The notes under the pieces were generated by a model that searched no databases, was not told where the DNA came from, and worked only from the letters and a program-made list of their open reading frames with translations. From an uncultured Gemmatimonadota bacterium (GTDB taxonomy: Bacteria; ARS69): a DNA stretch of 64,000 bases. Location of the stretch: contig CAYYFX010000002.1 of NCBI GenBank assembly GCA_964471155.1, forward strand, positions 9,852 through 73,851, given 5' to 3'. The translations under genes and the position numbers were made by a program. Position 1 is the stretch's first letter. Each line of letters opens with the position of its first letter. Of the stretch, positions 35,804 through 53,038 are shown piece by piece.

Positions 35804-36370
35804 CTACGGCAGGCCGATGGCCAGGCCCGCGTTCACGGTGATCTGGTCCGCATCCACCTCGCCGACCGACTCCGGGATCTCCTCGAAGTCGTAGTCGAGG
35901 TACAGCCAGCGGATGTCGGACGTGATGCTGACGTCGCCCGCGATCGGGATCTCGAGGCCGGCCCCGAAGTGGTACCCGAGCACCGAGTCGGTCTCGTCGT
36001 CCACCGGGAAGCCGCCCGGGTAGTCGAGGGTGGCGTTGTACCAGCCCACGCCCGCGAGCGCGTACAGCGGCGGCAGCGGATAGAGGAGCAGCGAGGCGCG
36101 CACCGGCCACGAGCGGAGCTCCGCGTCGAACGGCAGCTCCTCCTCGTGGTAGTCGATGGCACCCTCGATCCCGACGAACGCGGAGCGGACGCGGACGAAC
36201 GCGCCGCCCATGTGCAGGCTCTCGTCGGAGCCCTGGATGTTCACGTAGGTGTACCTCGGCCCGATGCCGACGCCCCAGGTCTCCCTCCGCTCGTCCCAGA
36301 CATCCGCGGTCGAGGCACGGGGGAACGCGGCGACGAACACGACGCCCGCTGCGATGAGGTTCCGAATCAT
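35804..36370 (-). CDS. small outer-membrane beta-barrel protein (188 aa)
   Basis: Signal peptide is MIRNLIAAGVVFVAAFPRASTA. The pattern of alternating beta-strands with Gly/aromatic girdles is present. The start was chosen at the ATG at 36370 (M53 of ORF 35804..36526). Confidence 0.6.
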   Translation of the reverse strand: MIRNLIAAGVVFVAAFPRASTADVWDERRETWGVGIGPRYTYVNIQGSDESLHMGGAFVRVRSAFVGIEGAIDYHEEELPFDAELRSWPVRASLLLYPLPPLYALAGVGWYNATLDYPGGFPVDDETDSVLGYHFGAGLEIPIAGDVSITSDIRWLYLDYDFEEIPESVGEVDADQITVNAGLAIGLP

Positions 36371-36546
36371 GGAGTCCACCTTTCCTGCGGTTGCGTCGGG
36401 GGACGGCATCTCGCGGCGACGCCGGGAGCTCAACGCAAGGCGCGTGCCACGCAGCATTGTGGAACGTGAATTGCATGGGAGTCGGTTGCCGGGTGCCCGC
36501 GACGTTCGCGGGGCCGCCCGGACCACTCGAACTCCGGAGGATCGCC

Positions 36547-37299: not shown

Positions 37300-37418
37300 C
37301 CGGGCGATTCCCGCGTGACCCGCGGCCCGGCGGGACGGTACAGTGGCCGGGTCGCGGGTCGGCCCCCCGTCCTCCGCCCGGCCCCGTCCTTCGTGTCCGC
37401 TGCGAGGGAGGGATCTTC

Positions 37419-38333
37419 ATGCGCAGGCTTCCGCGCTCCGCAACGTTCCTGCTGTCGCTCGCGTGCGTCCCCGCGTCGCACGCGGATCTCGTGGTGGTCT
37501 CCGAGACTCGGCGCGCCGCCACCACCGCGTTCGCCTTCTCGGCCACCGACACCGACAACGAGGACCGGTTCGCGGTGGCGCCACCCGCGGCGCCGTTCGA
37601 CGTGTCCCTGTTCGCCGACGCGGCGCTTCCCGAGGGCGGCGCCACGGCCACCGCCACGCAGACCTCGTCCCTCGACGCGTCGTCGGTGCGCGCCGCGGGC
37701 AGCGTGACGGGCGACTCGCAGGTGCTGGTCGCCGGCGCCACGGCGTACGGCATCGCGCAATCCAACGTGGCGGTCCGGTTCACGCTGGCCGAACCCGCGG
37801 AGTTCGCCGTCACCGGCTTCCTGGATGCCGAGGGCGACGCGGTGCTGAACGTGGCCCTCTCCCGTCCGTTCGAGACGCTGGTGTGGGTGACCGCGCAGGA
37901 CGGCGACACCGCCCTGGACGAATCGGGCGTCCTGGAGGCCGGCGAGTACGACCTGAACGTGAGCTGCACGGCGAACGGCACGTCCTTCGCGGTGGACGAG
38001 ATCGGGCATGCCGCGGCGGAGTACGAGGTGCACCTCGTGCTCGGCGGCGCCACGGACGCGCCCGTCCTCGCGTCCGACGCGCCGGTGCGCGCCGCCCCGA
38101 ACCCGTTCCGCACGAGCACGCGGCTGACCGTGCCGGCCGGCACGAGCGGCCTGCGCATCCTCGATGCGCGCGGGCGGATCGTCCGCGCGCTGGACGTCGC
38201 CTCGACGACCCCGGTGTTCGACGGCCGCGACGCCGCGGGGCGCCCGCTCCCCGGGGGCGTGTACTGGGCGGCGCCCGTGGGCGCGGACGGCCTGCAGGCG
38301 CGCGAAGCGGTCCGGCTCGTGCGGCTCCGGTAG
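37419..38333 (+). CDS. secreted hypothetical protein with degenerate FlgD-Ig/T9SS-type CTD (304 aa)
   Basis: GAGGGAGGGA lies before the ATG at 37419. Signal peptide is MRRLPRSATFLLSLACVPASHA. The CTD is APNPF...GGVYW...VRLVRLR. Confidence 0.8.
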   Translation: MRRLPRSATFLLSLACVPASHADLVVVSETRRAATTAFAFSATDTDNEDRFAVAPPAAPFDVSLFADAALPEGGATATATQTSSLDASSVRAAGSVTGDSQVLVAGATAYGIAQSNVAVRFTLAEPAEFAVTGFLDAEGDAVLNVALSRPFETLVWVTAQDGDTALDESGVLEAGEYDLNVSCTANGTSFAVDEIGHAAAEYEVHLVLGGATDAPVLASDAPVRAAPNPFRTSTRLTVPAGTSGLRILDARGRIVRALDVASTTPVFDGRDAAGRPLPGGVYWAAPVGADGLQAREAVRLVRLR

Positions 38334-38464
38334 CCCGGCGCGGGCGCGGGGAACTTCGCGGGCGGCGGGGAGTAGAGGGAACGGACCCTCGGGCGCCCCG
38401 GTCTGCGGACCGGCCAGTCCACATCCTCTGGACCCGCGGAACGGACGGTGAGACCCTTTCCGGC

Positions 38465-39775
38465 ATGCCGACCCTTCGCCCGAGCCGCCGTAGCGGCCAC
38501 GCCATGCCCCGCCCCGCAGTCCTCCTCCTCCTTCCGCTTGTCCTGGCTGGCGCCGGGTTCGCCGGTTGCGGCCGGGGTTCCTCCGCCGAGGGCGGTGCCG
38601 GAGGCCGGACGCCGGCCGTCGAGGCCGTCCAGGCGCGCGAGGGCGCGCTGCCCCTCACGCAGCGCCTCAGCGGGGTGGTCCGGGCGCGCAACCAGGTCGG
38701 GATCTACCCGCAGATCACGGCCGTCGTCACCGATGTCCTGGTCCAGGACGGCGAGATCGTGCGCGCCGGACAAGCGCTGGTCCGGCTGCGGGACACGGAG
38801 TTCCGCGAGCGACTGAAGCAGGCGCAGGCCAACCACCGCATCGCCGCGGCGCAGTTGCGGAAGGCGGAGGCGCAGGCGAAGGAGGCGCGCGCGGATCTCG
38901 CGCGGATGCGGTCGCTGGCGGAGAACGACCTCGCGTCCGGGGCGGAGCTGGAGACGGTGGAGGCGCGGACCGAGGCCGCCGAGGCGGAGGTGGCGCTGGC
39001 GGAAGCGCGCGTGGAGCAGGCGCTGGCCGAGACGCAGGAGCAGGAGGAGAACCTCGCGCAGACCGTGGTGCGCGCGCCGGTGGCCGGCCATGTCGGCGGC
39101 CGCGACGCGGAGGTCGGCATGCTGGCCGGTCCGGGAGCGCGCCTGTTCACGGTGGGCAAGCTCGACAGCGTCCGCGTGCAGGTCGTGCTGACCGACCGGA
39201 TGCTCGCGTACATCGAGGAGGGACAGCGCGCCGAGGTCTCCGCGTCCGGCCTCACGACGTCGGCCACGCTGTCGCGGATCTCGCCCTTCCTGCATCCGGT
39301 CACGCACACCACCGAGGCCGAGATCGACCTGGCGAACCCGGAGACGGCGCTCAAGCCGGGGATGTTCGTGACCGTGGACGTGTTCCACGGCGAGAGCGAA
39401 CGGGCCACGCTCGTGCCGCTCGCCGCCGTGTACGAGTCCCCCGTCACCGGGCTGACCGGCGTGTGGGTGACGGACGCCTCCATCGAGCAGGAGCCCGTGG
39501 AGGTGGTGGACACGGCGGTCCCCGCGGCGTTCACCGAACCGCTCGCGTTCGCGTTCGTGCCCACCGAGGTCGTGGCGCAGGGCCACATGGAGGCGGCCGT
39601 GCGCGGCATCGCCCCCGGCGCGTGGGTGGTCACCCTGGGTCAGGACCTGCTCGAGGGCGAGAAGGCGCAGGCGCGCGTCCGCCCCGTGAAGTGGACCCGG
39701 GTGGAGCGGCTGCAGCAGCTCCAGCGCGAGGACATGATGGACGAGGTCCTCGCGCGGAAGGCGCCGCTGCCGTGA
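38465..39775 (+). CDS. efflux RND transporter periplasmic adaptor (MFP) subunit, probable lipoprotein (436 aa)
   Basis: Lipobox LVLAGAGFAGC, a coiled-coil hairpin, and a VRAPVAGHV lipoyl-like motif are present. An alternative start lies at 38504. Confidence 0.85.
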   Translation: MPTLRPSRRSGHAMPRPAVLLLLPLVLAGAGFAGCGRGSSAEGGAGGRTPAVEAVQAREGALPLTQRLSGVVRARNQVGIYPQITAVVTDVLVQDGEIVRAGQALVRLRDTEFRERLKQAQANHRIAAAQLRKAEAQAKEARADLARMRSLAENDLASGAELETVEARTEAAEAEVALAEARVEQALAETQEQEENLAQTVVRAPVAGHVGGRDAEVGMLAGPGARLFTVGKLDSVRVQVVLTDRMLAYIEEGQRAEVSASGLTTSATLSRISPFLHPVTHTTEAEIDLANPETALKPGMFVTVDVFHGESERATLVPLAAVYESPVTGLTGVWVTDASIEQEPVEVVDTAVPAAFTEPLAFAFVPTEVVAQGHMEAAVRGIAPGAWVVTLGQDLLEGEKAQARVRPVKWTRVERLQQLQREDMMDEVLARKAPLP

Positions 39776-42700
39776 GGATCACCGAGGTCGCGGTCCACCG
39801 CCCCATCGCCACCTCGATGGTGTTCCTCATCATCATCGTGGTTGGCATCATGGGGCTCCGCTTCCTCCCCGTGGACCTCCTCCCCGCCATCGAGTACCCG
39901 CAGCTCACGATCCGCACCGAGTACCCGAACGTGGGCCCGGAGGAGATCGAGCGGATCATCACGGACCGCGTGGAGAACGCGCTGTCCGGCGTGCCGAACG
40001 TGGAGGAGATGCGCTCCCAGTCCGAGGAGGGGCGGAGCTCGGTGACCCTGGAGTTCTCCCAGGGCACGAACATCGACGAGGCCGCGAACGACGTGCGCGC
40101 CGCGATCGACCGGATCCGCGACAGCTTCCCGCCCGAGGTGGAGTCGCCGCGCCTGTGGAAGTTCGACCCGGACAACTTCCCGGTGGTGATCCTGGGGGCG
40201 CGCTCCGACAAGGGCATGGAGGAGCTGACCCTGCTCCTCGAGCGGGAGATCGCGCAGCACTTCGAGCAGATCCCGGGCGCCGGATCCGTGGACGTCTGGG
40301 GCGGCGTGTACCGGGAGGTGCAGGTGCGGCTGAAGCGGGACCGCCTCGCCTCCAGCGGCCTGGCCGCCTCCGACGTGCGCGAGGCCCTGGAGCGCGAGAA
40401 CACCACGCTCCCGGGCGGCGACATGCGCGAGGGCACGCGCGACCTCTACGTCCGCACGCGCGGGGAGTACGTGTCCCTGGCCGAGATCGCGGAGACCATC
40501 ATCACCACGGTGGACGGGCGGCCCATCCGCGTCCGCGACGTGGCCGAGGTGGTGGACGGCTACGAGGACGTGGACCGCCTGGTGCAGATCGACGGCCGCC
40601 CCATGGTGCGCCTCGGGATCCGGAAGCAGTCGGGCGCGAACACCGTGGCCGTGGCCGAGGAGGCGCGCGCGGTGATGGAGCGCATCAACCGCGACCGCGA
40701 CGACCTCGAGCTGATGATGGTCATCGACCAGAGCGACTTCATCAGGAACTCCATCCGCAACGTGCAGTCGTCCGCGATCTGGGGCGGCATCCTCGCCGTC
40801 CTCGTGCTGTACGTCTTCCTGCGGAACGGATCCACCACGTTCATCATCGCGCTGGCCATCCCGATCTCGCTCATCGCCACGTTCGGGCTGCTGTTCTTCA
40901 ACGGCCTGACCCTGAACCAGATGAGCTTCGGCGGCCTCGCGCTCGGGGTGGGCATGATCGTGGACAACGCCATCGTGGTGCTGGACAACATCGTCCGGCT
41001 GCGCGAGGGCAAACGCCCGCTCCAGGAGAGCGCCCTGACCGGGACGAAGCAGGTGGGCGGCGCCATCGTGGCGTCCACCCTGACCACGTGCGTGATCTTC
41101 CTCCCCGTCGTCTTCATGCGCACGGTCTCCGGCATGCTGTTCCGGGAGCTGGCGCTCGTGATCGTGTTCGCGCTCCTCTGCTCCCTGCTCGCGGCGCTGA
41201 CGCTCGTGCCGATGCTGGCCAGCCGGTACCTCACGGTGGGCCGGGAGGGGCACTCGCGCGCCCGGCCGCTGCTGGACCGCCTGGGCGCGTGGTTCACGCG
41301 CGTGGAGGATCGGTACGAGGCCCTCCTGCAGCGCCTCCTGCACCACCGCGCGATGGTGCTCGCGGGGGCCGGAGTGATGCTGCTGGCGGCGTTCCTGATG
41401 TGGCCGCTCCTGCCGGTGGAGCTGGCGCCGCAGACGGACGCGGACGAGATCGACGTGGACCTCGAGATGGCGCAGGGCACGAGCATCGCGGTGGTGAACG
41501 AGTACCTGCACGAGCTGGAGGCGCTCGTGCGGGAGGCCGCCCCGATGGACGAGGTGAAGCACCTCACCATCGAGATCCGCGGCGGCGACGCGGAGGTGGA
41601 GCTGGCCCTGCACGACGCGGACGAGCGCTCCATGGACAGCTACGACATCGCGGACCGGATCCGCAGCCACGTGGCCGGGCGGATCCCCGGCGCGGAGCTG
41701 CGGGTGCAGGCGCAGTCCGGGCTGTGGATGCTGCGGCGGCTGTTCGGGACCGGCGAGGGCGCCATGCAGCTGGAACTGCGCGGCTACGACCTGGCCAAGG
41801 CCGACGCGGTGGCGCTGGACCTGAAGCGGATCATGGAGAGCGTGCCGGGCATCGAGGACGTGCGGGTGAGCCGGCGCGAGGGCCGGCCGGAACAGAACCT
41901 GATCGTGGACCGCGAGAAGATCGCGAACGTGGGTCTCTCCGTGCAGGACATCGCGGAGGTGATCCAGACGAACGTGGGCGGCAGCCGCGCCGGCGTGTTC
42001 CGCGAGGGCGGCGACGAGTTCCCCATCGTGGTCCGTTTGCAGCCGGACGACCGGCTCACCACGCTGGACCTCGGCAGCGTATCGGTGCGCACCGACCGGG
42101 GCACGATCCTGCCGGTGTCGGCGGTGGTGCACACGGAGCGGCGGCGCAGCCCGACGTCCATCGACCGGGTGGACGGCCAGCGCGTGACCTACCTCACGGC
42201 GAACCTGCAGAGCGGCGTGGCGCTGGGCGACGTGATGGAGGAGCTGCGCGCGCGGCTGGCCGGGTTCACCCTGCCGCCGGACATCACGCTCCTGTTCGGC
42301 GGGGAGTACGAGGAGCAGCAGAAGGCGCAGCGGGACTTCGTGCTGTCCATCGTGATGGCCGTGGTGCTGATCTACATGGTCATGGCCGCGCAGTTCGAGC
42401 GGTTCGTGGACCCCCTCATCGTCATGGTCACCGTGCCGCTGGCGATCGTGGGCGTGGTGCCCACGCTGCTGCTCACCGGGACGACGCTGAACGTGCAGAG
42501 CCTCATGGGGATCGTGATGCTGGTGGGCATCGTGGTGAACAACGCCATCGTGCTGGTGGACTACATCAACCTCATGCGGCGCGAGCGGGGCCTGGACGTG
42601 GCCGCGGCCGTGGTCCGGTCGGGCCGCATGCGCCTGCGCCCCATCCTGATGACCACGTGCACCACGGTGCTCGGCATGCTGCCCCTGGCCGTGGGCGGCG

Positions 42701-42864
42701 GCGCCGGCGGCGAGATCCAGGCGTCGCTGGCCCGCGCCGTGATCGGCGGGCTGAGCGTGTCCACGCTGATCACGCTGGTCGTGATCCCGTCCGTGTACAC
42801 CGGCGTGCACGACCTGGGCGAGGCCATCCGCGCCCGGCGCGCGCGCCCCGCCCCGGCCGCCTAG
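39772..42864 (+). CDS. efflux RND transporter permease subunit (AcrB-like) (1030 aa)
   Basis: The N-terminus is RITEVAVHRPIATSMVFLIIIVVGIMGLRFLPVDLLP. It has 12-TM RND architecture. The GTG start overlaps the MFP stop (GTGA). Confidence 0.9.
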   Translation: MRITEVAVHRPIATSMVFLIIIVVGIMGLRFLPVDLLPAIEYPQLTIRTEYPNVGPEEIERIITDRVENALSGVPNVEEMRSQSEEGRSSVTLEFSQGTNIDEAANDVRAAIDRIRDSFPPEVESPRLWKFDPDNFPVVILGARSDKGMEELTLLLEREIAQHFEQIPGAGSVDVWGGVYREVQVRLKRDRLASSGLAASDVREALERENTTLPGGDMREGTRDLYVRTRGEYVSLAEIAETIITTVDGRPIRVRDVAEVVDGYEDVDRLVQIDGRPMVRLGIRKQSGANTVAVAEEARAVMERINRDRDDLELMMVIDQSDFIRNSIRNVQSSAIWGGILAVLVLYVFLRNGSTTFIIALAIPISLIATFGLLFFNGLTLNQMSFGGLALGVGMIVDNAIVVLDNIVRLREGKRPLQESALTGTKQVGGAIVASTLTTCVIFLPVVFMRTVSGMLFRELALVIVFALLCSLLAALTLVPMLASRYLTVGREGHSRARPLLDRLGAWFTRVEDRYEALLQRLLHHRAMVLAGAGVMLLAAFLMWPLLPVELAPQTDADEIDVDLEMAQGTSIAVVNEYLHELEALVREAAPMDEVKHLTIEIRGGDAEVELALHDADERSMDSYDIADRIRSHVAGRIPGAELRVQAQSGLWMLRRLFGTGEGAMQLELRGYDLAKADAVALDLKRIMESVPGIEDVRVSRREGRPEQNLIVDREKIANVGLSVQDIAEVIQTNVGGSRAGVFREGGDEFPIVVRLQPDDRLTTLDLGSVSVRTDRGTILPVSAVVHTERRRSPTSIDRVDGQRVTYLTANLQSGVALGDVMEELRARLAGFTLPPDITLLFGGEYEEQQKAQRDFVLSIVMAVVLIYMVMAAQFERFVDPLIVMVTVPLAIVGVVPTLLLTGTTLNVQSLMGIVMLVGIVVNNAIVLVDYINLMRRERGLDVAAAVVRSGRMRLRPILMTTCTTVLGMLPLAVGGGAGGEIQASLARAVIGGLSVSTLITLVVIPSVYTGVHDLGEAIRARRARPAPAA

Positions 42865-42872
42865 CTCGCCGC

Positions 42873-42893
42873 GCGCCCGGTTTCCCCCGGCGC
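42873..42893. terminator. short bulged hairpin in the 29-bp gap between the two convergent RND permease genes
   Basis: GCGCC(C)GG - TTTCCC - CCGGCGC gives 7 bp with one bulge. Confidence 0.25.
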
Positions 42894-45800
42894 CTACCGC
42901 CCCGCGGCTCCGGCGAGCGCGGGCTCCGTCGCCTCCGACACCGCAACCCGGGACTTCGCCACCAGCATGTAGATGGACGGGACGATCAGCAGGGTGAACG
43001 CGGTACCGATGATCATGCCCGACACCAGCATGATGCCGATGCTGTTCCTCGCCCCGGCGCCCGGCCCCGATGCGAACACGAGCGGCAGGTGGCCGAACAC
43101 CGTGGCGGCCGTGGTCATGAGGATCGGGCGAAGCCGCGTGCCCGACGCCTCGATCACGGCCTCCAGCTTGCCCATGCCGGTCTCCTGCAGGTGGTTCGCG
43201 AACTCCACGATCAGGATGCCGTTCTTCGCCACCAGTCCCACCAGGGTGATGAGCCCGACCTGGCTGTAGATGTTCAGCGTGGTGAAGCCCAGGAACGAGA
43301 ACATCAGCGCCCCGCAGATCGCCAGCGGGGCCGAGCCCGCGAGGATCACGAACGGGTCCCGGAAGCTCTCGAACTGCGCGGAGAGCACGAGGAAGATCAG
43401 CACCGCCGACAGGAGGAAGATGCCGAGGAACCGGCTCCCCTCCGTCCGGAGCTGCCGGGACTCCCCGGCGTAGTCCACCGTGAATCCCGGCGGCAGGATC
43501 CTCGCGGCCTCGTCCTCCAGGAACGTGAGCGCCTGGTCCAGCGACACGTTCGGCGGCACCACGCCCTGGATCCGCACCGCGTTGAGCTGCTGGAACCGCT
43601 TCAGCTCCCGCGGTTCCGTGGACGTCTCCAGCGTCGCGAACGTGGCCAGCGGCACCAGCCGCCCGTCCGTCCCGGTCACGTAGATGTCCTGCAGCTGGTC
43701 CGGCGTGAGGCGCTCGCTCCGCTTGACCTGCGGGATCACCTTGTAGCTCCGGCCCTGGATGCTGAACCGGTTCACGTGGTTCCCGCCCAGCAGCGTGGAC
43801 AGATCGCGGCCCGCCCGGCTCATCTCGACGCCCTGCGAACGGACCTTGTCGCGGTTGAACACCACCTCGGCCTGGGGCTGGTCCAGCTTCACGTCCGCGT
43901 CCGCGAACATGAACAGCCCGGACTCGAAGGCCCTCCCCACCAGCCGGTTCGCCAGGTCCACCAGCTCCCGCGGCTCCGCCGTGGACGCGATCACGAAGTC
44001 CACCGGGAAGTCGCCCCCGCCCGGCAGCGCGGGCGGGATCAGCGAGATCACGCGGATGCCGGGGATCCCCGCCAGCCCGGCGGAGGCCTCCATCTGGAGC
44101 TGTTCGGAGGTCTTCTCCCGCTCGCTCCACGGCTTCGTGACCATGCCGCCGAAGCCGCCGGTGGCGGACATGAGCTGGAACGTGTTCTGGTACTCGGGGA
44201 AGCCGCGGTACACCTCCTCCACCTGCGCCGCGTAGAGCTTCGTCTGGTCCAGGGTGGAGTTCGCCGCCGCCTGCACGATGCCGAAGACCACGCTCTGGTC
44301 CTCGTTCGGCGCCAGCTCCCGCTGCGAGAACATGTAGAACGGCACGATGAGCAGCATGACCGCGCCCCAGACGACGTAGACCACCGGCCGGTACCGGAGC
44401 GTCCCCGCGAGCTGCCGCTTGTAGGTCTCGCGGATGCGCGCGAACTGCCGGTTCACCCAGCCGGCGAAGCCGCGCTCGGCGTCCCCGGCGCGCAGCAGCC
44501 TCGACCCCATCATGGGCGACAGCGTGAGCGCCACCACGCCGGACACGAGCACCGCGCCCGCCAGCGTGAACGCGAACTCCCGGAACAGGGACCCGGTCAG
44601 CCCGCCCTGGATCGCCACCGGCGTGTACACGGCCACCAGCGTGACCGTCATGGCCACGATGGGACCGATCAGCTCCCGCGCCCCCTCGATGGCCGCCTGC
44701 AGCGGCGGCTGTCCGGCCTGCAGGTGCCGCTCCACGTTCTCCACCATGACGATGGCGTCGTCCACGACCAGACCCACCGCCAGCACGATGGCGAGCAGCG
44801 TGAGGAGGTTGACGGTGAATCCGGCCAGGAGCATCACGAACACCGCGCCGATCAGCGAGATCGGGATGGCCACCACCGGGATGAGCACCGCCCGCACCGA
44901 GCCCATGAACAGGAAGATCACCAGGATCACGATGGCCAGCGTCTCGGCGAGCGTGTGCAGCACCTCGTGGATGGCGCTGTCGATGTACTCGGTGGAATCG
45001 TACGGGATGCCCGAGGTCATGCCGGCGGGGAGCTGCGCCTGGATGGCGGGCAGGGCCTCGCGGACCCGCGCGATCACCTCGAGCGAGTTCGCGGTCGGCA
45101 GCACCCATACGCCCATGAACGTGGCGCCCTGGCCGTTGAACCGCACGTCCTGCTCGTAGTTGTCCGCGCCGAGCGCCACGTCGGCGATCTCGCCGAGCCG
45201 CACCACCGTCCCGTCGTCCTCCTTGACGACGAGCTGCCGGAACTCCTCCGGCGTCCGCAGGTCCGTGTTCGCCACCAGGTTCACCGACACCATGGAGCCC
45301 TTGGTACGCCCCAGCGCCGACAGGTAGTTGTTGTCGGCCAGGGCCTCGCGCACGTCGGACGCGGAGATCCCCATGGCCGCCATCCGGTCCGGCTTCAGCC
45401 AGATGCGCATCGCGAACGTGCGCCCGCCCAGGATGTCCGCGCGCTGCACCCCCTCGATCGCGCTCAGCTTCGGCTGCACCACGCGCGTCAGGTAGTCGGT
45501 GATCTGGTTCTGGTCCAGCTCGTCGGACGCGAACCCGATGTACATGGCCGCGAACCGGTTGTCGGCGGTCTCGAGGTTGATGATCGGCGCCTCGGCCTCC
45601 GGCGGCAGCTCGTTGCGGACCTGCGCCACCTTGGACTGGATCTGCGTGAGCGCGGCGTTCGTGTCGTAGTTCAGCTTCAGGTGGACCGTGATGGTGCTGA
45701 GCCCCTGCGCGCTGGACGACTCCATGTAGTCGATGCCGTCCGCGCTCGCGATCACTCGCTCCAGCGGCGTGGTGATGAATCCGCGCACGAGGTCCGCGCC

Positions 45801-45962
45801 CGCCCCCACGTACGCGGTGCTCACCGTCACCACGGCCATGTCGCTGCGGGGGTACTGCCGCACGCTCAGGGCGCGGATGGACTGCAGCCCGGCGATCAGG
45901 ATCACCAGGTTCACCACCATCGCGAGGACGGGGCGCTTGACGAAGACGTCGGTGAACTTCAT
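42894..45962 (-). CDS. multidrug-type efflux RND transporter permease subunit (1022 aa)
   Basis: The N-terminus is MKFTDVFVKRPVLAMVVNLVILIAGLQSIRALSVRQYP. GGAGGA lies upstream. The ATG shares its A with the MFP stop (TGATG). Confidence 0.92.
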   Translation of the reverse strand: MKFTDVFVKRPVLAMVVNLVILIAGLQSIRALSVRQYPRSDMAVVTVSTAYVGAGADLVRGFITTPLERVIASADGIDYMESSSAQGLSTITVHLKLNYDTNAALTQIQSKVAQVRNELPPEAEAPIINLETADNRFAAMYIGFASDELDQNQITDYLTRVVQPKLSAIEGVQRADILGGRTFAMRIWLKPDRMAAMGISASDVREALADNNYLSALGRTKGSMVSVNLVANTDLRTPEEFRQLVVKEDDGTVVRLGEIADVALGADNYEQDVRFNGQGATFMGVWVLPTANSLEVIARVREALPAIQAQLPAGMTSGIPYDSTEYIDSAIHEVLHTLAETLAIVILVIFLFMGSVRAVLIPVVAIPISLIGAVFVMLLAGFTVNLLTLLAIVLAVGLVVDDAIVMVENVERHLQAGQPPLQAAIEGARELIGPIVAMTVTLVAVYTPVAIQGGLTGSLFREFAFTLAGAVLVSGVVALTLSPMMGSRLLRAGDAERGFAGWVNRQFARIRETYKRQLAGTLRYRPVVYVVWGAVMLLIVPFYMFSQRELAPNEDQSVVFGIVQAAANSTLDQTKLYAAQVEEVYRGFPEYQNTFQLMSATGGFGGMVTKPWSEREKTSEQLQMEASAGLAGIPGIRVISLIPPALPGGGDFPVDFVIASTAEPRELVDLANRLVGRAFESGLFMFADADVKLDQPQAEVVFNRDKVRSQGVEMSRAGRDLSTLLGGNHVNRFSIQGRSYKVIPQVKRSERLTPDQLQDIYVTGTDGRLVPLATFATLETSTEPRELKRFQQLNAVRIQGVVPPNVSLDQALTFLEDEAARILPPGFTVDYAGESRQLRTEGSRFLGIFLLSAVLIFLVLSAQFESFRDPFVILAGSAPLAICGALMFSFLGFTTLNIYSQVGLITLVGLVAKNGILIVEFANHLQETGMGKLEAVIEASGTRLRPILMTTAATVFGHLPLVFASGPGAGARNSIGIMLVSGMIIGTAFTLLIVPSIYMLVAKSRVAVSEATEPALAGAAGR

Positions 45963-47086
45963 CAGCTGTCCTCCGGATCCGGCGCGGGATCGTTCGCCGG
46001 CTGGATCGTGTTGTCGACAAGGACGGCGGCGCCGTTCCGGAGCTTGAACACGCCGGAGGTCACGACCTCCTCGCCGGGCTCCACCCCGGACAGCACCGCG
46101 ATCTGGTCGCCGCGGCCGCCGCCCACCTTCACGAAGCGCTGCTCCACGCCGCGGTACGTCGCGCCGTCCGGGTCGGACAGGTCGGCCACGACGAACACGG
46201 AGTTGCCGTACGGGGCGTAGCTGATCGACGGGGCCGGCAGCGCGATCACGGGATCGCTCGTGCCCAGGGCCACACGGACCTCCACGAACATGCCCGGGTG
46301 CAGCCGGCCGTCCGGGTTGCGGAACGTCGCCTGGATGCGCACGTTCCGCGTGGCCTCGTCCACGACGGAGTTCACCGCGGTCACGCGCCCGGTCAGCTCC
46401 CCGCCGGTTCCGTCGGGCGTGACGTGCACGTCGGCCCCGACCGACAGCCTCGCCACCTCCTGCTGCGGCACCGAGAAGTCCACGTACACCGGATCCAGGG
46501 CCTGCAGCGGCACCACCGGATCGCCGGCGGTCAGGTACTGCCCGAGGTTGATCTGGCGGATCCCGAGCGTCCCGGCGAACGGCGCGCGGATCTGCTTCCG
46601 CTCGATCGTCGCCTGGATCTCCCCCGAACGCGCGATCGCCTGCTTCGCCTCCGCCGCCGCCCGGTCGAACTCCGCCTGCGACACGACCTTCTTCTCCCGC
46701 AGGTTCCGCATGCGCTCGAGGTTCAGTCGGGCCAGCTCCTGTTGCGCCTCGGCGGCCGCGAGCTGCGCGCGCTCCTGGCTGGTGTCCAGCCGCGCGAGCA
46801 CGTCGCCCGCCCGGACGTGCCGGCCGGACTCGAACGCGATCTCCTCCACGATGCCCGGCAGGTCCGCGCTGACGGTCACGCCGTGCACTGCCGCCACCGT
46901 CCCGATGACCTCGAGCGTGGCGGGCCACTCCTCGCGCTGCGCCACGATGGTCGTGACCGCCTCCGGGGGCATCCGGAACGCCGCGCCCTGCGCGATCGCC
47001 TCGCGGATCTGCAGGAACTTCACCGAGCCGAGCAGCGTGATGGCCGCCACGAGGATCAGGACCACCACCGTCATGCGCTTTGCCAT
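45962..47086 (-). CDS. efflux RND transporter periplasmic adaptor (MFP) subunit (374 aa)
   Basis: It has an N-terminal TM anchor, a coiled-coil, and an IRAPFAGTLG motif. GGAGG lies 8 nt before the ATG, immediately after the TolC-like stop. Confidence 0.9.
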   Translation of the reverse strand: MAKRMTVVVLILVAAITLLGSVKFLQIREAIAQGAAFRMPPEAVTTIVAQREEWPATLEVIGTVAAVHGVTVSADLPGIVEEIAFESGRHVRAGDVLARLDTSQERAQLAAAEAQQELARLNLERMRNLREKKVVSQAEFDRAAAEAKQAIARSGEIQATIERKQIRAPFAGTLGIRQINLGQYLTAGDPVVPLQALDPVYVDFSVPQQEVARLSVGADVHVTPDGTGGELTGRVTAVNSVVDEATRNVRIQATFRNPDGRLHPGMFVEVRVALGTSDPVIALPAPSISYAPYGNSVFVVADLSDPDGATYRGVEQRFVKVGGGRGDQIAVLSGVEPGEEVVTSGVFKLRNGAAVLVDNTIQPANDPAPDPEDS

Positions 47087-47098
47087 GGCCGTTGCCTC

Positions 47099-48658
47099 CT
47101 AGTCTTCCGTTCCGTCCGCGGCGATGCCGTGGTCCTCGAGCAGCGAGCCCTCCGCACGCGCCATCTCCGCGCGCGCGAGGCGGTAGTCCGTGCGGGCCGA
47201 GATCTCGTCCAGCCGCGCGCGGGACAGGTCATTCTGGCGGGTCAGCACCAGGAAGTTCGTGGAGAGCCCGGTGGCGTAGCGGTCCCGCTCGGCGTCGAGC
47301 TGGACCTCCGCGGCCTCGCGCGCGGCGCGAGCGGCCTCGATCCGCTGTCCCGCCGTCTCCAGCGCGGCCACCGCGTCCAGGACCTCCGCCCGGATCCCCT
47401 TCCGGATCCGCGCGAGGTCCGCTTCGGCCCGGCGCTCCGCGCGGCGCGCCACCTCCGCGGACGCGCGCGCGGTCCGGTTCGGGATCGGCAGCGCCAGCAC
47501 GAGCGCCACGCGCGCCTCGTCGAAGTCGCCGTCGCCCAGCGTCCCGAAGGACCGGCCCAGCCCGCCGTCCAGGCGGGCGGGAAGCGCCTCGTCGCCGGCG
47601 GCCGGGTTCGCCTCGCCCGCCAGCCCGTAGCGGTCGTACGAGAGGACGGCGTCCAGCGACGGCCACACGCCGTCGCGCGCATGGCTCGTCTCGGCCGCGC
47701 GACGCTGCACGACGGCGCGCGCCTCCTCCAGTTCCGGGCGGCGCTCGAGCGCCCGCCGCAGCGCCGCGCCCGCGTCCACCGGCTCCGGATCGGCCGCGGC
47801 GCTGTCCACGGGAACGAGGCCGGTGAGCCATGCGGCATCCTGGTCGTCGCCGAGGATGAGGAGCTTCAGGGTGTTCTCCGTGCGCGCGACCACCTCGCGG
47901 GCGGCCAGCAGCTCGCCGCGCCGGCGCTCCAGCTCCGCGCGCGGCTGCGCCAGCTCCGTCTCCGGCGCCATCCCGCTCGCCACCCGCTCCCCCGTCACCG
48001 CGAGCTGCTCCTCGGCGAGCTGCACGGCCTCGGCCCGCACACCCTCGGCCAGCCGGGTGGCCGCCAGGGTCCAGTACGCCTCCTCCACCGCCGCCACCGT
48101 CTCCGTACGCGCGCGCGCGAGCGCCGCTTCGGCGCCGCGCTCGCCCGCCCGGGACACGCGCACGGCCAGACGCGCCGCATCGATGGAACGGTCGCGCAGC
48201 AGGGGTTGGCGCAGTTCCACGCCGAGCCGCGTCCCGTACGCCGGCGACAGCCGGGCGAACACCCCGTCCGTCTCCTCCCGCTCGCCGCGCGCCCGCAAGG
48301 ACAGGGCGCCGCCGGTGGGCAGGAGCTGCCGCACGGTGACGCCGCCGCCCGCGGTCTCCACCTCGGGCGCCAGCCCGTCGTCCGGCCCGCCGGCGAAGGA
48401 CGAGTTCACGGGCGTGGTGGCCTGCGACCAGCCCGCGTCGATCTCCACCGTGGGGTCGTACGCTCCCCTCGCAGCGGACACCGAGGCCCGGGCCGCGGCC
48501 AGCGCTTCCCGCTCGATCACGAGGGGCTCGCTCTTCTCCAGGGCGAGACGTACGGCCTCGTCGAGGGTCAAGGAACGCTCCGCCCCCGCCGCGGGGAGCC
48601 CGGCCAGCCCCGGCAGGAGCAGCAGGGCCGCGAGGGCCCGGGAGGCGTTCGCGCTCAC
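47099..48658 (-). CDS. TolC-family outer membrane efflux protein (519 aa)
   Basis: Signal peptide is VSANASRALAALLLLPGLAGLPAAGA. It carries LTLDEAVRLALE and two repeated TolC half-domains. The GTG start overlaps the stop of the upstream small gene (GTGA). Confidence 0.88.
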   Translation of the reverse strand: MSANASRALAALLLLPGLAGLPAAGAERSLTLDEAVRLALEKSEPLVIEREALAAARASVSAARGAYDPTVEIDAGWSQATTPVNSSFAGGPDDGLAPEVETAGGGVTVRQLLPTGGALSLRARGEREETDGVFARLSPAYGTRLGVELRQPLLRDRSIDAARLAVRVSRAGERGAEAALARARTETVAAVEEAYWTLAATRLAEGVRAEAVQLAEEQLAVTGERVASGMAPETELAQPRAELERRRGELLAAREVVARTENTLKLLILGDDQDAAWLTGLVPVDSAAADPEPVDAGAALRRALERRPELEEARAVVQRRAAETSHARDGVWPSLDAVLSYDRYGLAGEANPAAGDEALPARLDGGLGRSFGTLGDGDFDEARVALVLALPIPNRTARASAEVARRAERRAEADLARIRKGIRAEVLDAVAALETAGQRIEAARAAREAAEVQLDAERDRYATGLSTNFLVLTRQNDLSRARLDEISARTDYRLARAEMARAEGSLLEDHGIAADGTED

Positions 48659-48891
48659 GAGACACCTCCTTCGAGATCCGTCTTCTGCAGCCGCGGGTCG
48701 ATCGCCCCGGCGAACCGGTTCAACTCCCCGGGATCGAGCGCGGCCAGCGACCGGCACTCCGAGGGCGTCAGGTCCACGCCGTTCTCCCGCATCATGCGCA
48801 GCGCCTCCCGGGGATTCCGGGAGAAGTGGCGGCGGGCCATCTCGTCCGTCGCCAGCCGTCCGATCACGCGTTCCACATTCACTTGGCTCAT
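48655..48891 (-). CDS. small cytoplasmic NHLP/Nif11-leader-like protein (78 aa; Os1348-type NHLP-clan-like from memory)
   Basis: Sequence: MSQVNVERVIGRLATDEMARRHFSRNPREALRMMRENGVDLTPSECRSLAALDPGELNRFAGAIDPRLQKTDLEGGVS. A GGAGAA RBS is present. There is no signal peptide. It is translationally coupled to the TolC-like gene. Confidence 0.7.
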   Translation of the reverse strand: MSQVNVERVIGRLATDEMARRHFSRNPREALRMMRENGVDLTPSECRSLAALDPGELNRFAGAIDPRLQKTDLEGGVS

Positions 48892-48923
48892 TCCCCGTTC
48901 TCCGTGGTTCCGCCCTTGCCATC

Positions 48924-48938
48924 TCAAGGGACGTGCCA
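48924..48938 (-). promoter_or_regulatory. sigma54-type -24/-12 promoter candidate (TGGCACG-TCCC-TTGA)
   Basis: Minus strand reads TTTGGCACGTCCCTTGAGA, against consensus TGGCACG-N4-TTGCW. The only deviation is C to A at -12. The element ends 33 nt upstream of the small-gene ATG. Confidence 0.5.
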
Positions 48939-49032
48939 AACCGCGGGAGACGGGAAGGAATCGCGCAGCGTGCGGCGGGGACTCGACTTGCGCACGAGCG
49001 CGCGAGCGGCGTCGCGATGCGGACGGGCGGGG

Positions 49033-49073
49033 CGGTGTCGGCGGATCGACACCGGTGTCGGTGCATCCGCACC
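49033..49073 (-). promoter_or_regulatory. candidate enhancer (UAS) for the adjacent sigma54 activator
   Basis: There is a perfect 8-6-8 palindrome CGGTGTCG-GCGGAT-CGACACCG (49033..49054). A third CGGTGTCGG copy sits at 49053..49061, 20 bp from the first. A GGTGC-ATCC-GCACC palindrome lies at 49060..49073. All are about 100-135 bp upstream of the -24 element. Confidence 0.35.
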
Positions 49074-49183
49074 GTCGCCGACGGGACGACCACCGCAAGA
49101 CGACGCGCCGGACCCGCTCGGGAGTCCGGCGCCCGTGGATGTTGAGGATCCGGTCAAGGAGCCCCGCGGCGCGGGGCCCGCGA

Positions 49184-51307
49184 TCAGCGGATGCCGTGCT
49201 TCTCCAGCCGCCAGTAGAGCTGCGCGCGGCTCAGTCCGAGCGCGCGCGCGGCCTGCGACTTGTTGCCGTTCGACTGCGCGAGCGCCTTCACGACGAGATC
49301 GCGCTCGGCCGCGTCGAGATTCAGTCCGCCGCCGGCGGGCGCCGGATGGGCCGGGCGGGGCGCGTTCCCGTTCGTCCCGGTGCGCGACTCGGCCTCCGGT
49401 TCGTCCTCCGGCGCGGCCGGCGGGCGCGGCGCCGGCAAGTGCTCGCGCGTGATCAGCCCGCCGTCGGAGAGGAGGATCGCCCGCTCGATGGCGTTCCGGA
49501 GCTCCCGCACGTTCCCCGGCCACGCGTACGTCAACAGGGCTTCCCGCGCGTCCCGCGAGATGCCGGCCGCGGGCCGGGTCATCGTGCGTCCCAGGTCCTG
49601 CAGGAAGACCTCCGCCAGCGGGAGGATGTCCTCGGGACGTTCACGCAGCGGCGCGATGTGGATGGTGAACACGTTCAGCCGGTAGTAGAGGTCCTCGCGG
49701 AACGTGCGCCGCGCGATGCCGGCCGCGAGATCGCGGTTCGTGGCCGCGATGATCCGCACGTCGGCCGCCAGCGTGGCGGTGCCGCCCACGCGCTGGAACT
49801 CCCGCTGCTCCAGGACGCGCAGGAGCTTCGCCTGGACGGCCGGACTCATCTCCGCGATCTCGTCCAGGAACAGGGTGCCGCCCGACGCCTGCTCGATCTT
49901 CCCCACCTTCGTGGCGATCGCGCCGGTGAACGCGCCCTTCTCGTGCCCGAAGAGCTCGGACTCCAGCAACTGCTCCGGCAGGGCCGCGCAGTTGATCGCC
50001 ACGAGCGGCCTCCCCGCGCGCGGCGACCCCTGGTGCAGGAGCTGGGAGACGACCTCCTTGCCGGTGCCCGACTCGCCGGTGACGAGCACGGTGGTCTCGG
50101 ACGGGGCCACGCGTCCCACGTCCCGCAGGGTCGCCCGCCAGGACCGCGACACGCCCGCGATACGGCCGCGGCCCCGCGTCTGCAGCTCCCGGGAGAGCGT
50201 CTCCACCGTGGCCTCCAGCCGCTGGGCGCGCTCCCGCGCCTCCGCCGCCACGCGCGCCTCCTCGGCCAGCCGCTGGTGCGAGAGGGCCACCGCCAGGCGA
50301 TCCGCGAAGCGGCGCGCCACCTCCACGTCCTCCATGGTGTAGCGGCCCGGCTCGCGGTGCAGAATCACGAGCGACCCCTTCACCTCCTCCCACAGCCGGA
50401 CCGGAACGCGAAGCCACGAGCGCATGCCCGTACCGAGCAGCACACGGTTGCGCTCGGTGTCCGGCGCGAGCTCCTCCTTCAGGTCCCGCACGATCTCGTG
50501 GTCCAGCAGGCGCCGGCGGGACTCCTCCTCGGTGAAGCGGATCGGCCGGTCCGGGGCGGGGCCGTCCGACTCGCCGGCATAGGCCACGACGCGGAAGGTG
50601 CGCGTGTCCTCGTCCAGCTCCGTGAGGCTGATCAGGTGGTGCGGCAGCACCGGCTTGACGGCCTCGGAGATCGTCTCGAACACCGCCGTCACGTCCAGCG
50701 TGTCCGCAAGCGACCGGAGCGCCACCTCCAGGAGGTCCAGCCGTTCGCGGCGGCGCCGATCCGCATCCCAGATGCGCCAGTGCTCCACCGCGGACCCGAG
50801 CAGCGCCGCGATCGGTTGCAGCACCTGCTGGTGCTCCTCGGTGAACGCGGACGGCTGGTACGAGGACAGCCAGACCCCGCCGCGGAACGTGTCCCGGGAG
50901 CGGAAGGGCTCCCACATCCCGGACCGCACGCCCCCCTGCAGCGCCTTGGCGTCCACCGGGAAGTGCGCGTCGAATTCCTCCCACGCGTCGTCGATGCGCG
51001 GGTTCGGCCCGGGGCGCGGGCGCATGCGCGGCGACCAGGACGTCAGCGGGATGGGCTCCATGCACTCCAGGGAGCTGCCGCCGCACGGGAACGTGCTGGC
51101 GTGGATGACCGCGCGATCGCCGTCCACGACGCGCACGACGCCCATGTGATCGAACGGGATCAGCTCGCGGACGCAGGTGGCCACGCGGTCGAAGACCTCC
51201 TGCAGCTCCAGGGTCTCCGACGCGATGTCCGCGATCCGGGCCAGGCAACGGGCGACACGCTGGGCATCGACCGCGCTCGGGGTCAGTTCACCGACGGTGA
51301 GGCTCAT
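49184..51307 (-). CDS. sigma54-dependent Fis-family transcriptional activator with two N-terminal GAF-like domains (707 aa)
   Basis: AAA+ core: [14 protein letters not shown]...[13 protein letters not shown] (GAFTGA loop)...[10 protein letters not shown]-terminal HTH: [27 protein letters not shown]. There is no receiver domain. GGAGAA lies before the ATG at 51307. Confidence 0.92.
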
Positions 51308-51512
51308 GAGGTTCTCCGATGCGCCCACGCACCCGAGCGATTCCGGAAGAAACGGCGCGCGGAACGTCGCGTCAAGGGAACGAAAGATGAGCGCACGATC
51401 CCGTTCTCTCGCGGGCCGCTCGCCCTTTCCGGACGACGAACGGAGTCGGATCGGATCGACACGCGACGCGAGGAAGCGAGGCGGACAGCGACCGGGATCC
51501 CGGACGCGCCGA

Positions 51513-52964
51513 TCAGGAATGCGCGCGCATCGCCGCCGCGATCGCGGCGCTGAGGATGCGGTTGCCCTCGCCGTTGAAGTGGCAGCAGCTGTCCACGTAC
51601 AGCGTGCCGCCGGCCTCCTCGAAGGCCATGGTCAGGTCGTGGAACTCCACGCCCGCGTCGCGCAGGTCCCGTCCGGCGGCGCGAAGCAGCGGGTACCCCT
51701 CCTCCACCACCGGCCGGTACGGGCTCCCGGCATCGAACGCGTTCGCGCGCTCCGTGGCCGACAGCGGCTTCGAGCCCGGCAGGTACTGGTTCGGCTGCAG
51801 GACGTGCACGTAGCGGATGCCGTGCGCGTCGCACAGCGCCTTCAGCTGCAGGGAGGAGCGGCGCCAGACCTCCACGCACCACGGCACCAGGCCGCCCGCC
51901 GGGGCGTGATCCCGCTCCGGGCCCCGCACGAAGTACGGGATCTCGTCCACGGGGAAGGTCCGCAACTCCCACGCGTAGCGCGCGGCCTTGCGTTCGAGGT
52001 CGCGGTCCGAGAGCTTCCAGAGCAGACGCGCGGTGGCGGAGCGCGAGGCCGGCGACGCGCGGAAGCGCGCCGCGCGCACACGCCGCTCGTCCGTGACGTA
52101 GGCCATCGCCCCGAGCGCCCGCCGGACGCCGGGATCGGGCGTGTCCAGCGCCACCATGCTCCAGTTCATCGGGTACAGCGGGTGCGCGCCCTGCGCCGCG
52201 TTGAGCGCCACGGGCACGGCGATCTCGTTGAACCCGTCCAGGTTCAGCACGATGTCGAAGGCGCCGCCCTGCGCGAGGACGGATGCGAGCTGGATGACCT
52301 GCTGCGGCTGGTGGTAGCCGGGCATCCCGAGACGGACGAACTCGATCTCCTTCCCCTCGAACGCGCCGCCCTCGCGCAGCGCCCGCTCCAGGTGCGCCAG
52401 GTGGAAGCTGCCGAGCTGCCCTGCCACGGACCCGCCCAGGATCCCGATCAGGACCGTGCCGTTCCGGCGGGCGCGGACTGCCGGGCGGTCGTCCAGGAAA
52501 CCGTCCGCGGAGATGTGGATGCCCGGGGGCAGCGGCGGGTCGCCCTCCTTGCGCGGCGTGTAGACGTAGCCCAGGTAGGGGTGCAGGGACATCGCGGGGT
52601 CGCGGAAGCCGAGGCCGGCGCGCTCGCGCGCGGCGCGGACGTCGGGAACCGCGGGATCGGCCGCCGCGGAGGAGTCGGCCGGCGCGGCGCTGTCGGCAGC
52701 GGCACCGCCGCCGGCCGCCGCGGAATCGGGGGCCGTGGACGAGTCCGCGCGGTCCCGTCGCGTCCCGTCCCCGTCGCGATCCGCTTCGTCCTCCCGGGGG
52801 ACGGCTTCGTCCCCGCTCGCGGCCGAGGCGATCGCGTCCGCGCCGCCGGCCACGCGCGCGTACAGCGCGGCGGACACGAGCTCGATCACCACGATCGCCA
52901 GCGCGATTGCCGCCAGCGGGAACAGGATGCGCCGGCGTGCCGGCGCCCGGGACTCGTTCGTCAT
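51513..52964 (-). CDS. membrane-anchored hypothetical protein, possible SGNH/DltD-like acyl-esterase fold (483 aa)
   Basis: It has an N-terminal TM helix ([23 protein letters not shown]) and an acidic Ala/Asp-rich linker. The globular domain carries ILGGSVAGQ near its start and [12 protein letters not shown] near its end, reminiscent of SGNH blocks I and V. Confidence 0.7.
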
Positions 52965-53038
52965 GAGCGGAGCATGCACGGTCCCCCCTCGTCCCGCTTT
53001 CACGATCCTGCACGCGCCGCGCGTGCTAGCATCCCGGC

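Follow-up and report, generated by a model that had tools for sequence, protein, structure and literature searches.

Efflux pumps are usually controlled by repressors and two-component systems. In HycA/FhlA, PspA/PspF and ZraP/ZraSR, the activator receives feedback from a small protein, the product of a gene that stands first in the activator-dependent unit or next to it. A further small protein, Os1348 of Pseudomonas sp. Os17, comprises 85 residues and crystallized as an all-alpha homodimer (6LK7); the os1348 gene precedes GNAT, HEXXH-type (peptidase-like) and SagB-type genes under Gac/Rsm control, and the loss of Os1348 lowers antibiotic activity, the protein having been proposed to be a modified antibiotic precursor (PMC7726476). 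The ECOD classification places Frankia_peptide, Nif11 and nitrile hydratase alpha (NHase-alpha) domains in one LigA-like group (PMC12353581). The present analysis concerns a string of genes on the minus strand of a 64-kb stretch of DNA from an uncultured Gemmatimonadota bacterium (contig CAYYFX010000002.1; the whole stretch, with a G+C content of 73%, is referred to as the window), in which the gene for a sigma-54 enhancer-binding protein (EBP) is followed by a small gene of the Os1348 family and by the genes of a tripartite efflux pump. The parts are of known kinds, namely an Os1348-family protein, a NifA-like EBP and an AcrAB-TolC-type pump, and it is the combination that is new. A tripartite pump operon controlled by an EBP and sigma-54, with an Os1348-type first cistron, a palindrome at a constant distance from the promoter and an atypical -12 element, is apparently undescribed; an earlier note made from the letters of this DNA had known of no such system, and full-text searches of the literature turned up papers on Os1348 and on fold classification and no description of the cassette. 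We consider it likely that the window carries one copy of a conserved, self-contained regulon cassette for enhancer-dependent, inducible efflux, in which the small protein is folded and, as a best guess, acts on the activator.

The string reads from 51307 to 42894 in the order GAF-GAF-AAA+(GAFTGA)-helix-turn-helix (HTH) activator, palindromes, promoter, 78-residue gene, TolC-like gene, membrane-fusion protein (MFP) gene and resistance-nodulation-division (RND) permease gene, and each element was located where the earlier note had placed it. All features of the string lie on the minus strand. The EBP of 707 residues (49184..51307) was identified by Pfam and NCBIfam models and by its orthologs at other loci. 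A spacer of 292 bp, which holds two palindromes and the predicted promoter, separates it from the small gene (48655..48891), the first cistron, encoding 78 residues with a molecular mass of 8.7 kDa. There follow genes encoding a TolC-type outer-membrane factor (OMF) of 519 residues with a signal peptide (47099..48658; Pfam OEP, 148.7 bits), a periplasmic adaptor of the MFP type with 374 residues (45962..47086; TIGR01730 RND_mfp, 265 bits against a cut-off of 94.9) and an RND permease of the AcrB/MexB (HAE-1) type with 1022 residues (42894..45962; Pfam ACR_tran, 856 bits), for which the best PDB matches were AcrB and MexB at approximately 540 bits. The tripartite set of the HAE-1 type is complete and, as in AcrAB-TolC and MexAB-OprM, the OMF, adaptor and permease are encoded in one operon. 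The cassette differs from these systems in the order OMF-MFP-RND, in the extra cytoplasmic small protein encoded by the first cistron, and in its apparent control by an EBP and sigma-54 rather than by TetR, MarR or two-component regulators.

The GTG start codon of the TolC-like gene lies inside the stop of the small gene (GTGA); the two genes, which the earlier note had called translationally fused, are instead coupled by this 4-nt overlap. A 12-nt gap separates the TAG of the TolC-like gene from the MFP gene, with AGGAGG overlapping the TAG, and the ATG of the RND gene shares 1 nt with the stop of the MFP gene (TGATG). Such overlapping or near-abutting stop and start codons would couple translation of the cistrons. 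No sigma-70-like promoter was found within the string (42500..51700 scanned), terminator-like sites in the same interval were not in excess of chance, and an Rfam scan of the window and four related loci returned no match, hence no known riboswitch or leader RNA in the 5' region.

The arrangement was compared with related loci, all of them from metagenome-assembled genomes (MAGs) and metagenomes and designated here by L-numbers. The small gene was present at 72 non-redundant loci in MAGs of Eisenbacteria, Acidobacteriota, Gemmatimonadota and Verrucomicrobiota and in soil metagenomes. Among the 64 loci whose downstream sequence is long enough, efflux genes directly followed the small gene in 59, usually as TolC-MFP-RND and twice as an ATP-binding cassette (ABC)-type tripartite pump, and the next gene was in frame with an NTGA overlap (ATGA, GTGA or TTGA) at the end of the small gene in most loci. 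In the first three homolog neighbourhoods the small gene was directly followed by OEP, MFP and RND genes and preceded by the gene for a GAF/sigma-54 EBP, and in a more distant case it immediately preceded the gene for such an EBP and no pump was present. A scan of one genome per species yielded 36 loci, all in MAGs, assigned to Eisenbacteria, Thermoanaerobaculia and other Acidobacteriota, Polarisedimenticolia, Holophagales, Krumholzibacteriia, Gemmatimonadales, Verrucomicrobiia and one Bacteroidota bin; an orthologous EBP was encoded upstream on the same strand at approximately 24 of these, and tblastn with the window proteins recovered the full EBP-small gene-TolC-MFP-RND string in most of them. 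Identities to the window proteins at related loci, as determined by tblastn, were 60-73% for the EBP (55-65% for its sensor/GAF region), 47-72% for the small protein, 51-64% for TolC, 50-69% for the MFP and 75-87% for the RND permease.

The search was also performed in reverse, with an alignment of the EBP sensor region, which retrieved 80 soil-metagenome loci; in 29 of these the sequence continues for 2.4 kb or more beyond the EBP gene. The small gene and pump lay downstream of the EBP ortholog in 25 of the 29, and two of the remaining four contigs have the small gene and pump 8 kb further on. Between MAGs assigned to different phyla (L009-L044, L046-L122) the RND permeases are 75-87% and the EBPs 60-70% identical, values unusually high for such distances, which suggests horizontal spread of the cassette or else errors of binning or taxonomy.

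The predicted promoter of the small gene, TGGCACGTCCCTTGA (48938..48924; TGGCACG-N4-TTGA), is conserved across loci and sits 47 nt upstream of the ATG, with a predicted transcription start near 48912. The sigma-54 consensus is TGGCACG-N4-TTGCW, and the -12 element of the window is thus TTGA rather than the canonical TTGC. The proximal palindrome, TGTCGATCCGCCGACA (49051..49036), starts 113 bp upstream of the -24 TGG and is the sole palindrome match in the window; the distal palindrome, TGCGGATGCACCGACA (49071..49056), starts 133 bp upstream of that TGG and is a degenerate copy of the TGT-N10-ACA type, recognized from its sequence and from second copies at other loci. Both are predicted upstream activator sites. 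In a chance test on the 64-kb window TGGCAC-N5-TTG was seen twice against 0.15 expected and the exact palindrome once against 0.02 expected, and the palindrome and promoter at the small gene form the only such pair in the window.

Across the related loci TGGCAC-N5-TTG(A/G) was present upstream of the small gene in nearly all, with the family promoter consensus cTGGCACGnnnCTTGAgA, and a 16-bp palindrome of consensus TGTCGATnnaTCGACA was found approximately 115 bp further upstream, in many cases duplicated at a distance of 19-20 bp on its upstream side. The promoter lay within 200 nt of the small-gene ATG in 56 of the 72 non-redundant loci and was accompanied by the palindrome in 52. When all units up to 1.4 kb upstream were counted, 77 promoter and palindrome units were found in 63 non-redundant loci. 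The distance from palindrome to promoter showed a main peak at 113-117 bp (57 of 110 sites) and a secondary peak at 132-136 bp (25 of 110), the latter owing to the second palindrome copies 19-20 bp upstream of the first. The upstream activator site of NifA is TGT-N10-ACA, located approximately 100-135 bp upstream of the -24/-12 promoter. The palindromes of the cassette fit this form, in agreement with NifA being the best model for the C-terminal two thirds of the EBP.

The recurrence of the string in dozens of loci with a conserved promoter and a palindrome at a fixed distance of about 115 bp is strong comparative evidence for the view in the earlier note that the GAF activator, the small gene and the pump form one sigma-54 unit, and its proposal of a single transcription unit is in keeping with the lack of a sigma-70-like site for the pump genes and with junctions too tight for internal promoters. 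The adjacency could instead be coincidental, or the pump could have its own promoter while the EBP controls something else; the window by itself was compatible with this explanation, and in some loci the EBP gene is 4-8 kb from the operon. However, synteny holds in both search directions and across phyla, the spacing from palindrome to promoter is fixed, promoters do not fit into the junctions (4-nt overlap, 12-nt gap and 1-nt overlap), and no sigma-70-like site was detected in the string. As far as sequence comparison goes the coincidental explanation is refuted, and we regard it as hardly conceivable.

A second sigma-54-type promoter, TGGCACGCGCCTTGC, with the canonical TTGC, was located at 36435..36449 on the minus strand approximately 65 nt before the ATG of a gene encoding an outer-membrane beta-barrel protein (PF13505; 35804..36370), with no TGT-N10-ACA palindrome within 160 bp. 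It suggests that the organism makes use of sigma-54 and that another activator controls a second target. Use of sigma-54 by the source organism may likewise be deduced from this promoter together with an EBP whose GAFTGA loop is intact. The beta-barrel gene at 35804..36370 was considered as a cassette-associated outer-membrane protein (OMP) gene and ruled out on its weak similarity and the lack of a palindrome. Many other loci (L018, 9255..9929; L046, L051, L081, L082, L114, L121 and others) carry between the EBP and small genes an extra gene encoding a PF13505 beta-barrel of approximately 220 residues, which has its own palindrome and promoter unit with a spacing of about 116 bp, the small gene usually retaining a second unit; no such gene occupies this position in the window. 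Since the extra OMP gene has a unit of its own, the regulon is modular. Thermoanaerobaculia-type loci (L016, L017, L029, L032, L035, L036, L108 and others) contain in addition a conserved TGTCGA-N16-TCGAC(G/C)A element 30-60 nt downstream of the promoter, for example in L029, within the 60 nt that precede the small gene at 10001. Its half-sites are those of the upstream palindrome set 16 nt apart instead of 4, with a variable spacer. Its appearance suggests a site bound by a protein, possibly for autoregulation, more than a hairpin in the RNA. The element is absent from the window.

The domain composition of the EBP is that of an enhancer-binding protein, with an AAA+ Sigma54_activat domain, a GAFTGA loop and a C-terminal HTH. 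Pfam models detected GAF_2 in two stretches, Sigma54_activat (PF00158, 233.9 bits), AAA_lid_14 and HTH_8 (43.6 bits), and the translation has an intact GAFTGA loop and the Walker A sequence GESGTGKE. The best NCBIfam model was NifA (TIGR01817), with 381.4 bits against an equivalog cut-off of 528.85 and only residues 272-706 aligned. The protein is called NifA-like and not NifA because of this score and the partial alignment; judged from these matches, it is a NifA-like EBP that has a further, distinct sensor region at the N-terminus and is the ortholog of no named EBP. FhlA has two N-terminal GAF-like domains. The EBP of the cassette shares with NifA and FhlA the GAF-AAA+-HTH architecture, and with NifA the best named model and TGT-N10-ACA palindromes at a NifA-like distance; it differs from them in falling below the NifA equivalog cut-off, in its two GAF domains with a distinct conserved sensor, and in an efflux operon as its predicted target rather than nif or hyc genes. 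The sensor region is highly conserved among the orthologs and includes the sequences WSPRLRPRPGP and EHWRIWD. Immediately before WSPRLRPRPGP, at residues ~70-95 of the first GAF domain (window ~51020..51100, minus strand), lies a length-variable insert that usually has at least two cysteines (PC...xC). It could be a redox- or metal-sensing loop, although the cysteines are not invariant.

On this evidence a mechanism can be proposed, in which binding of the EBP to the palindromes, dependence on sigma-54 and co-transcription are deduced from conservation. Oligomers of the NifA-like GAF-GAF EBP would bind the two tandem TGT-N10-ACA-type palindromes approximately 115-135 bp upstream of the sigma-54 promoter. 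Sensing of a signal by the GAF region would lead to ATP hydrolysis and, with the GAFTGA loop, to opening of the promoter, and a single mRNA would encode the small protein, the TolC-like channel, the membrane-fusion adaptor and the AcrB-type RND pump. The pump would thus be induced by positive, enhancer-dependent control and not by the usual repressor control.

The small protein was assigned to the Os1348 family of the NHLP clan by NCBIfam model NF038399, scoring 59.8 bits against a cut-off of 40 over residues 5-69 of 78. The Os1348-type model named in the earlier note as a check was thereby passed, whereas the "leader-peptide-like" label of that note was not borne out: the score against the NHLP leader model TIGR03793 was 11.5 bits where 50.9 is required, that against TIGR04509 was 21.9 bits where 34 is required, and the protein has no core peptide. 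The match to Pfam Frankia_peptide (PF14407) reached 34.8 bits, under the gathering threshold of 48, and many homologs bear a precomputed PF14407 label. An exhaustive profile search recovered 429 clusters at 50% identity with E≤1e-10, nearly all of 76-100 residues, and the pairwise ratio of nonsynonymous to synonymous substitution rates (dN/dS) of the gene had a median of 0.37. The homologs are conserved over their full length; invariant in the alignment are V6, E7, G11, T15-D16-E17, R20, F23, G38, L41, E45, A61 and P66-R-L-Q-K70, the last being part of a [D/G/H]PR[L/I]QK motif near the C-terminus. The tail beyond the motif is short and variable, with a median of 10 residues and no core peptide, and many members end in ...DLxGGxx. 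In two database proteins, P0169 (523 residues) and P0139 (365 residues), the small domain is continuous with a longer chain, which in P0169 runs into a TolC-like protein including its signal peptide; they are probably the result of a lost stop codon or of a gene-calling artefact at the overlapping junction rather than true fusions.

An AlphaFold2 model built from an alignment of 28 homologs showed an all-alpha domain of five helices with a mean pLDDT of 89.1. The only credible PDB matches found by Foldseek were the chains of 6lk7, with probabilities of 0.99-1.00, TM-scores of 0.63-0.73 and root-mean-square deviations of 2.2-2.4 Å, and a profile search with the small-protein family matched 6lk7_A by sequence as well (E=5e-4). 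A FlhD-like fold was returned with a Foldseek probability of 0.08 and was disregarded. The small protein therefore resembles Os1348 in the NF038399 score above cut-off, in fold and in length (78 against 85 residues), with an identity of 22-23%. It differs in its predicted EBP/sigma-54-type control and in the efflux genes that directly follow it, and the cassette subfamily has its own invariant [D/G]PRLQK, which extends beyond the aligned stretch (query positions 2-68). The GNAT, HEXXH-type and SagB-type genes of the Os1348 context, a context that lies outside the NCBIfam definition of the family, were not found in the window or in related loci. No signal peptide and no transmembrane or hydrophobic segment was found in the small protein, and in the model the conserved residues T15-D16-E17 contact R67-K70 to form a conserved surface patch. 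Taken together with the model, these results indicate a folded, cytoplasmic helical domain of the Os1348 type and not a leader peptide with a core.

These properties bear on the possibility that the small protein is a degenerate precursor of a ribosomally synthesized and post-translationally modified peptide (RiPP) or an exported peptide, cut after a C-terminal Gly-Gly and exported or processed via the pump. The placement in the NHLP clan, the weak Frankia_peptide match, the ...DLxGGxx ending of many members and the proposal made for the prototype Os1348 are all in its favour, and NHLP and Nif11 leaders (TIGR03793, TIGR03798) have a distantly related helical N-terminal module. However, the cassette protein differs from such leaders in having no variable core, maturases or C39-ABC exporter and in falling far under the NHLP cut-off, the TIGR04509 model failed likewise, only 2-10 variable residues follow the conserved domain, Gly-Gly is not invariant, and the entire chain folds with no export signal. 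No maturase, C39 peptidase or ABC exporter was found in the window, as had been observed previously, and none was found in related loci. RND pumps, moreover, draw their substrates from the periplasm or membrane and do not take up 9-kDa cytoplasmic proteins. The precursor explanation is nearly refuted and very improbable. Of the three roles suggested in the earlier note, that of an exported peptide is accordingly the least tenable, while the regulator and the pump accessory factor remain.

The variation among loci provides evidence on these two. The TolC gene was absent from five loci in which the small gene was still present, and in L040 the small gene accompanies a divergent MFP/RND pair of 30% identity. 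In L037 (548..4578) and L041 (10001..14680) the small gene, behind a palindrome and promoter of the cassette type, is followed by genes for a HlyD-type adaptor, DrrA-like ABC ATPases and an OEP, constituting an ABC-type tripartite pump. The presence of the small gene, palindrome and promoter before ABC pump genes indicates that the induction module is joined to ABC-type tripartite pumps as well. At L038 the EBP gene, palindrome and promoter are followed by the small gene alone, and in L007, L042 and L043 the small gene directly precedes the gene for a related EBP with no pump nearby.

Were the small protein a pump accessory, helping from the cytoplasm in the assembly, stability or gating of tripartite efflux systems, co-produced with the outer-membrane channel by translational coupling and having no effect on the activator, its promoter-proximal position in efflux operons at 59 of the 64 loci, the conserved 4-nt overlap with the next gene, and its company with ABC-type pumps and the divergent RND pump of L040 would be explained. 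Known small pump partners are either embedded in the membrane (AcrZ) or periplasmic (CusF), whereas the small protein has no transmembrane segment or signal peptide. It also stays despite the change from RND to ABC pump and the loss of the TolC gene, and it occurs with the EBP and no pump in L007, L042, L043 and L038. An accessory role is for these reasons unlikely. The reading in which the small protein acts on the EBP, as a feedback anti-activator or co-sensor made in step with the pump, is preferred over the accessory role because the small protein persists through the exchange of RND for ABC pumps, without TolC and without any pump, while the EBP or the palindrome and promoter stays. This reading, by analogy with HycA, PspA and ZraP, is our best guess and is put forward tentatively; these proteins have no sequence or fold relation to the small protein, the analogy being one of logic and not of homology. 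A third possibility is that the small protein is a cytoplasmic binder or sequestrant of the pumped compound, or a true ligand receptor that relays the compound, providing a co-induced second protection. A small, stable all-alpha fold related to dimeric Os1348, the conserved modelled patch and co-regulation with efflux genes would suit such a role. Against it, the model has no obvious pocket, though no pocket search was made, and no ligand is known for any member of the Os1348 family. The proposal has no precedent in the family and is, in our estimation, improbable.

Several points weigh against the proposed cassette and against a role of the small protein on its activator. All of the evidence is comparative, obtained from the sequences of MAGs and metagenomes. 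The -12 element departs from the canonical form, the base after TTG being A in 49 units, G in 20 and C in only 5. The counts of promoters and palindromes were obtained with regular expressions that fix some letters, by which the consensus, although not the distance peak, is partly circular. Six-frame translations of the window and of all 124 loci were searched for the RpoN box and gave no rpoN gene, a result made uninformative by the shortness of the fragments. Finally, contact between the small protein and the EBP is a conjecture, and the constant position of the small gene before efflux genes fits a pump-related role equally well.

The string has two neighbours in the window. Directly upstream of the EBP gene on the same strand is an open reading frame (ORF) of 496 residues with high G+C at third codon positions (51513..53003), which was considered as a maturase candidate and dropped, as it matched no Pfam or NCBIfam family. 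On the plus strand, convergent with the sigma-54-type pump operon, a second efflux system at ~38500..42864 comprises an MFP (HlyD domains in ORF 37343..39775) and an RND permease similar to RND_permease_2 (39781..42864). The stop of this permease gene is 29 bp from the stop of the RND gene at 42894..45962, and no OMF gene adjoins it.

The results will interest chiefly those who study the regulation of efflux, sigma-54 systems or the biology of uncultured soil phyla, or who mine genomes for RiPPs. Relative to the usual modes of pump control, the cassette would be a widespread alternative that depends on an enhancer and whose cis code can be read from the palindrome, the fixed spacing and the -24/-12 promoter. 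Its hosts belong to phyla, Acidobacteriota and Eisenbacteria among them, that dominate soils but are poorly represented in culture, and the cassette offers a defined activator, a predicted binding site, a promoter and a target set for rebuilding. Genome annotation and antiSMASH-type tools would label the small protein "nitrile hydratase alpha chain" or a RiPP precursor; a folded protein connected with regulation or efflux is the better description, and this reassignment is relevant to the mining of natural-product clusters. A bolder and more doubtful reading is that the sigma-54 activator has in the Os1348-type protein a partner of a new kind, an anti-activator or co-sensor, within a portable induction module of EBP, TGT-N10-ACA sites and TTGA promoter that several uncultured soil phyla have set before RND and ABC tripartite pumps and an OMP gene. 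If the small protein is indeed a partner of the activator, it would represent a stand-alone regulatory use of the "RiPP-leader-like" LigA/Nif11/NHLP fold.

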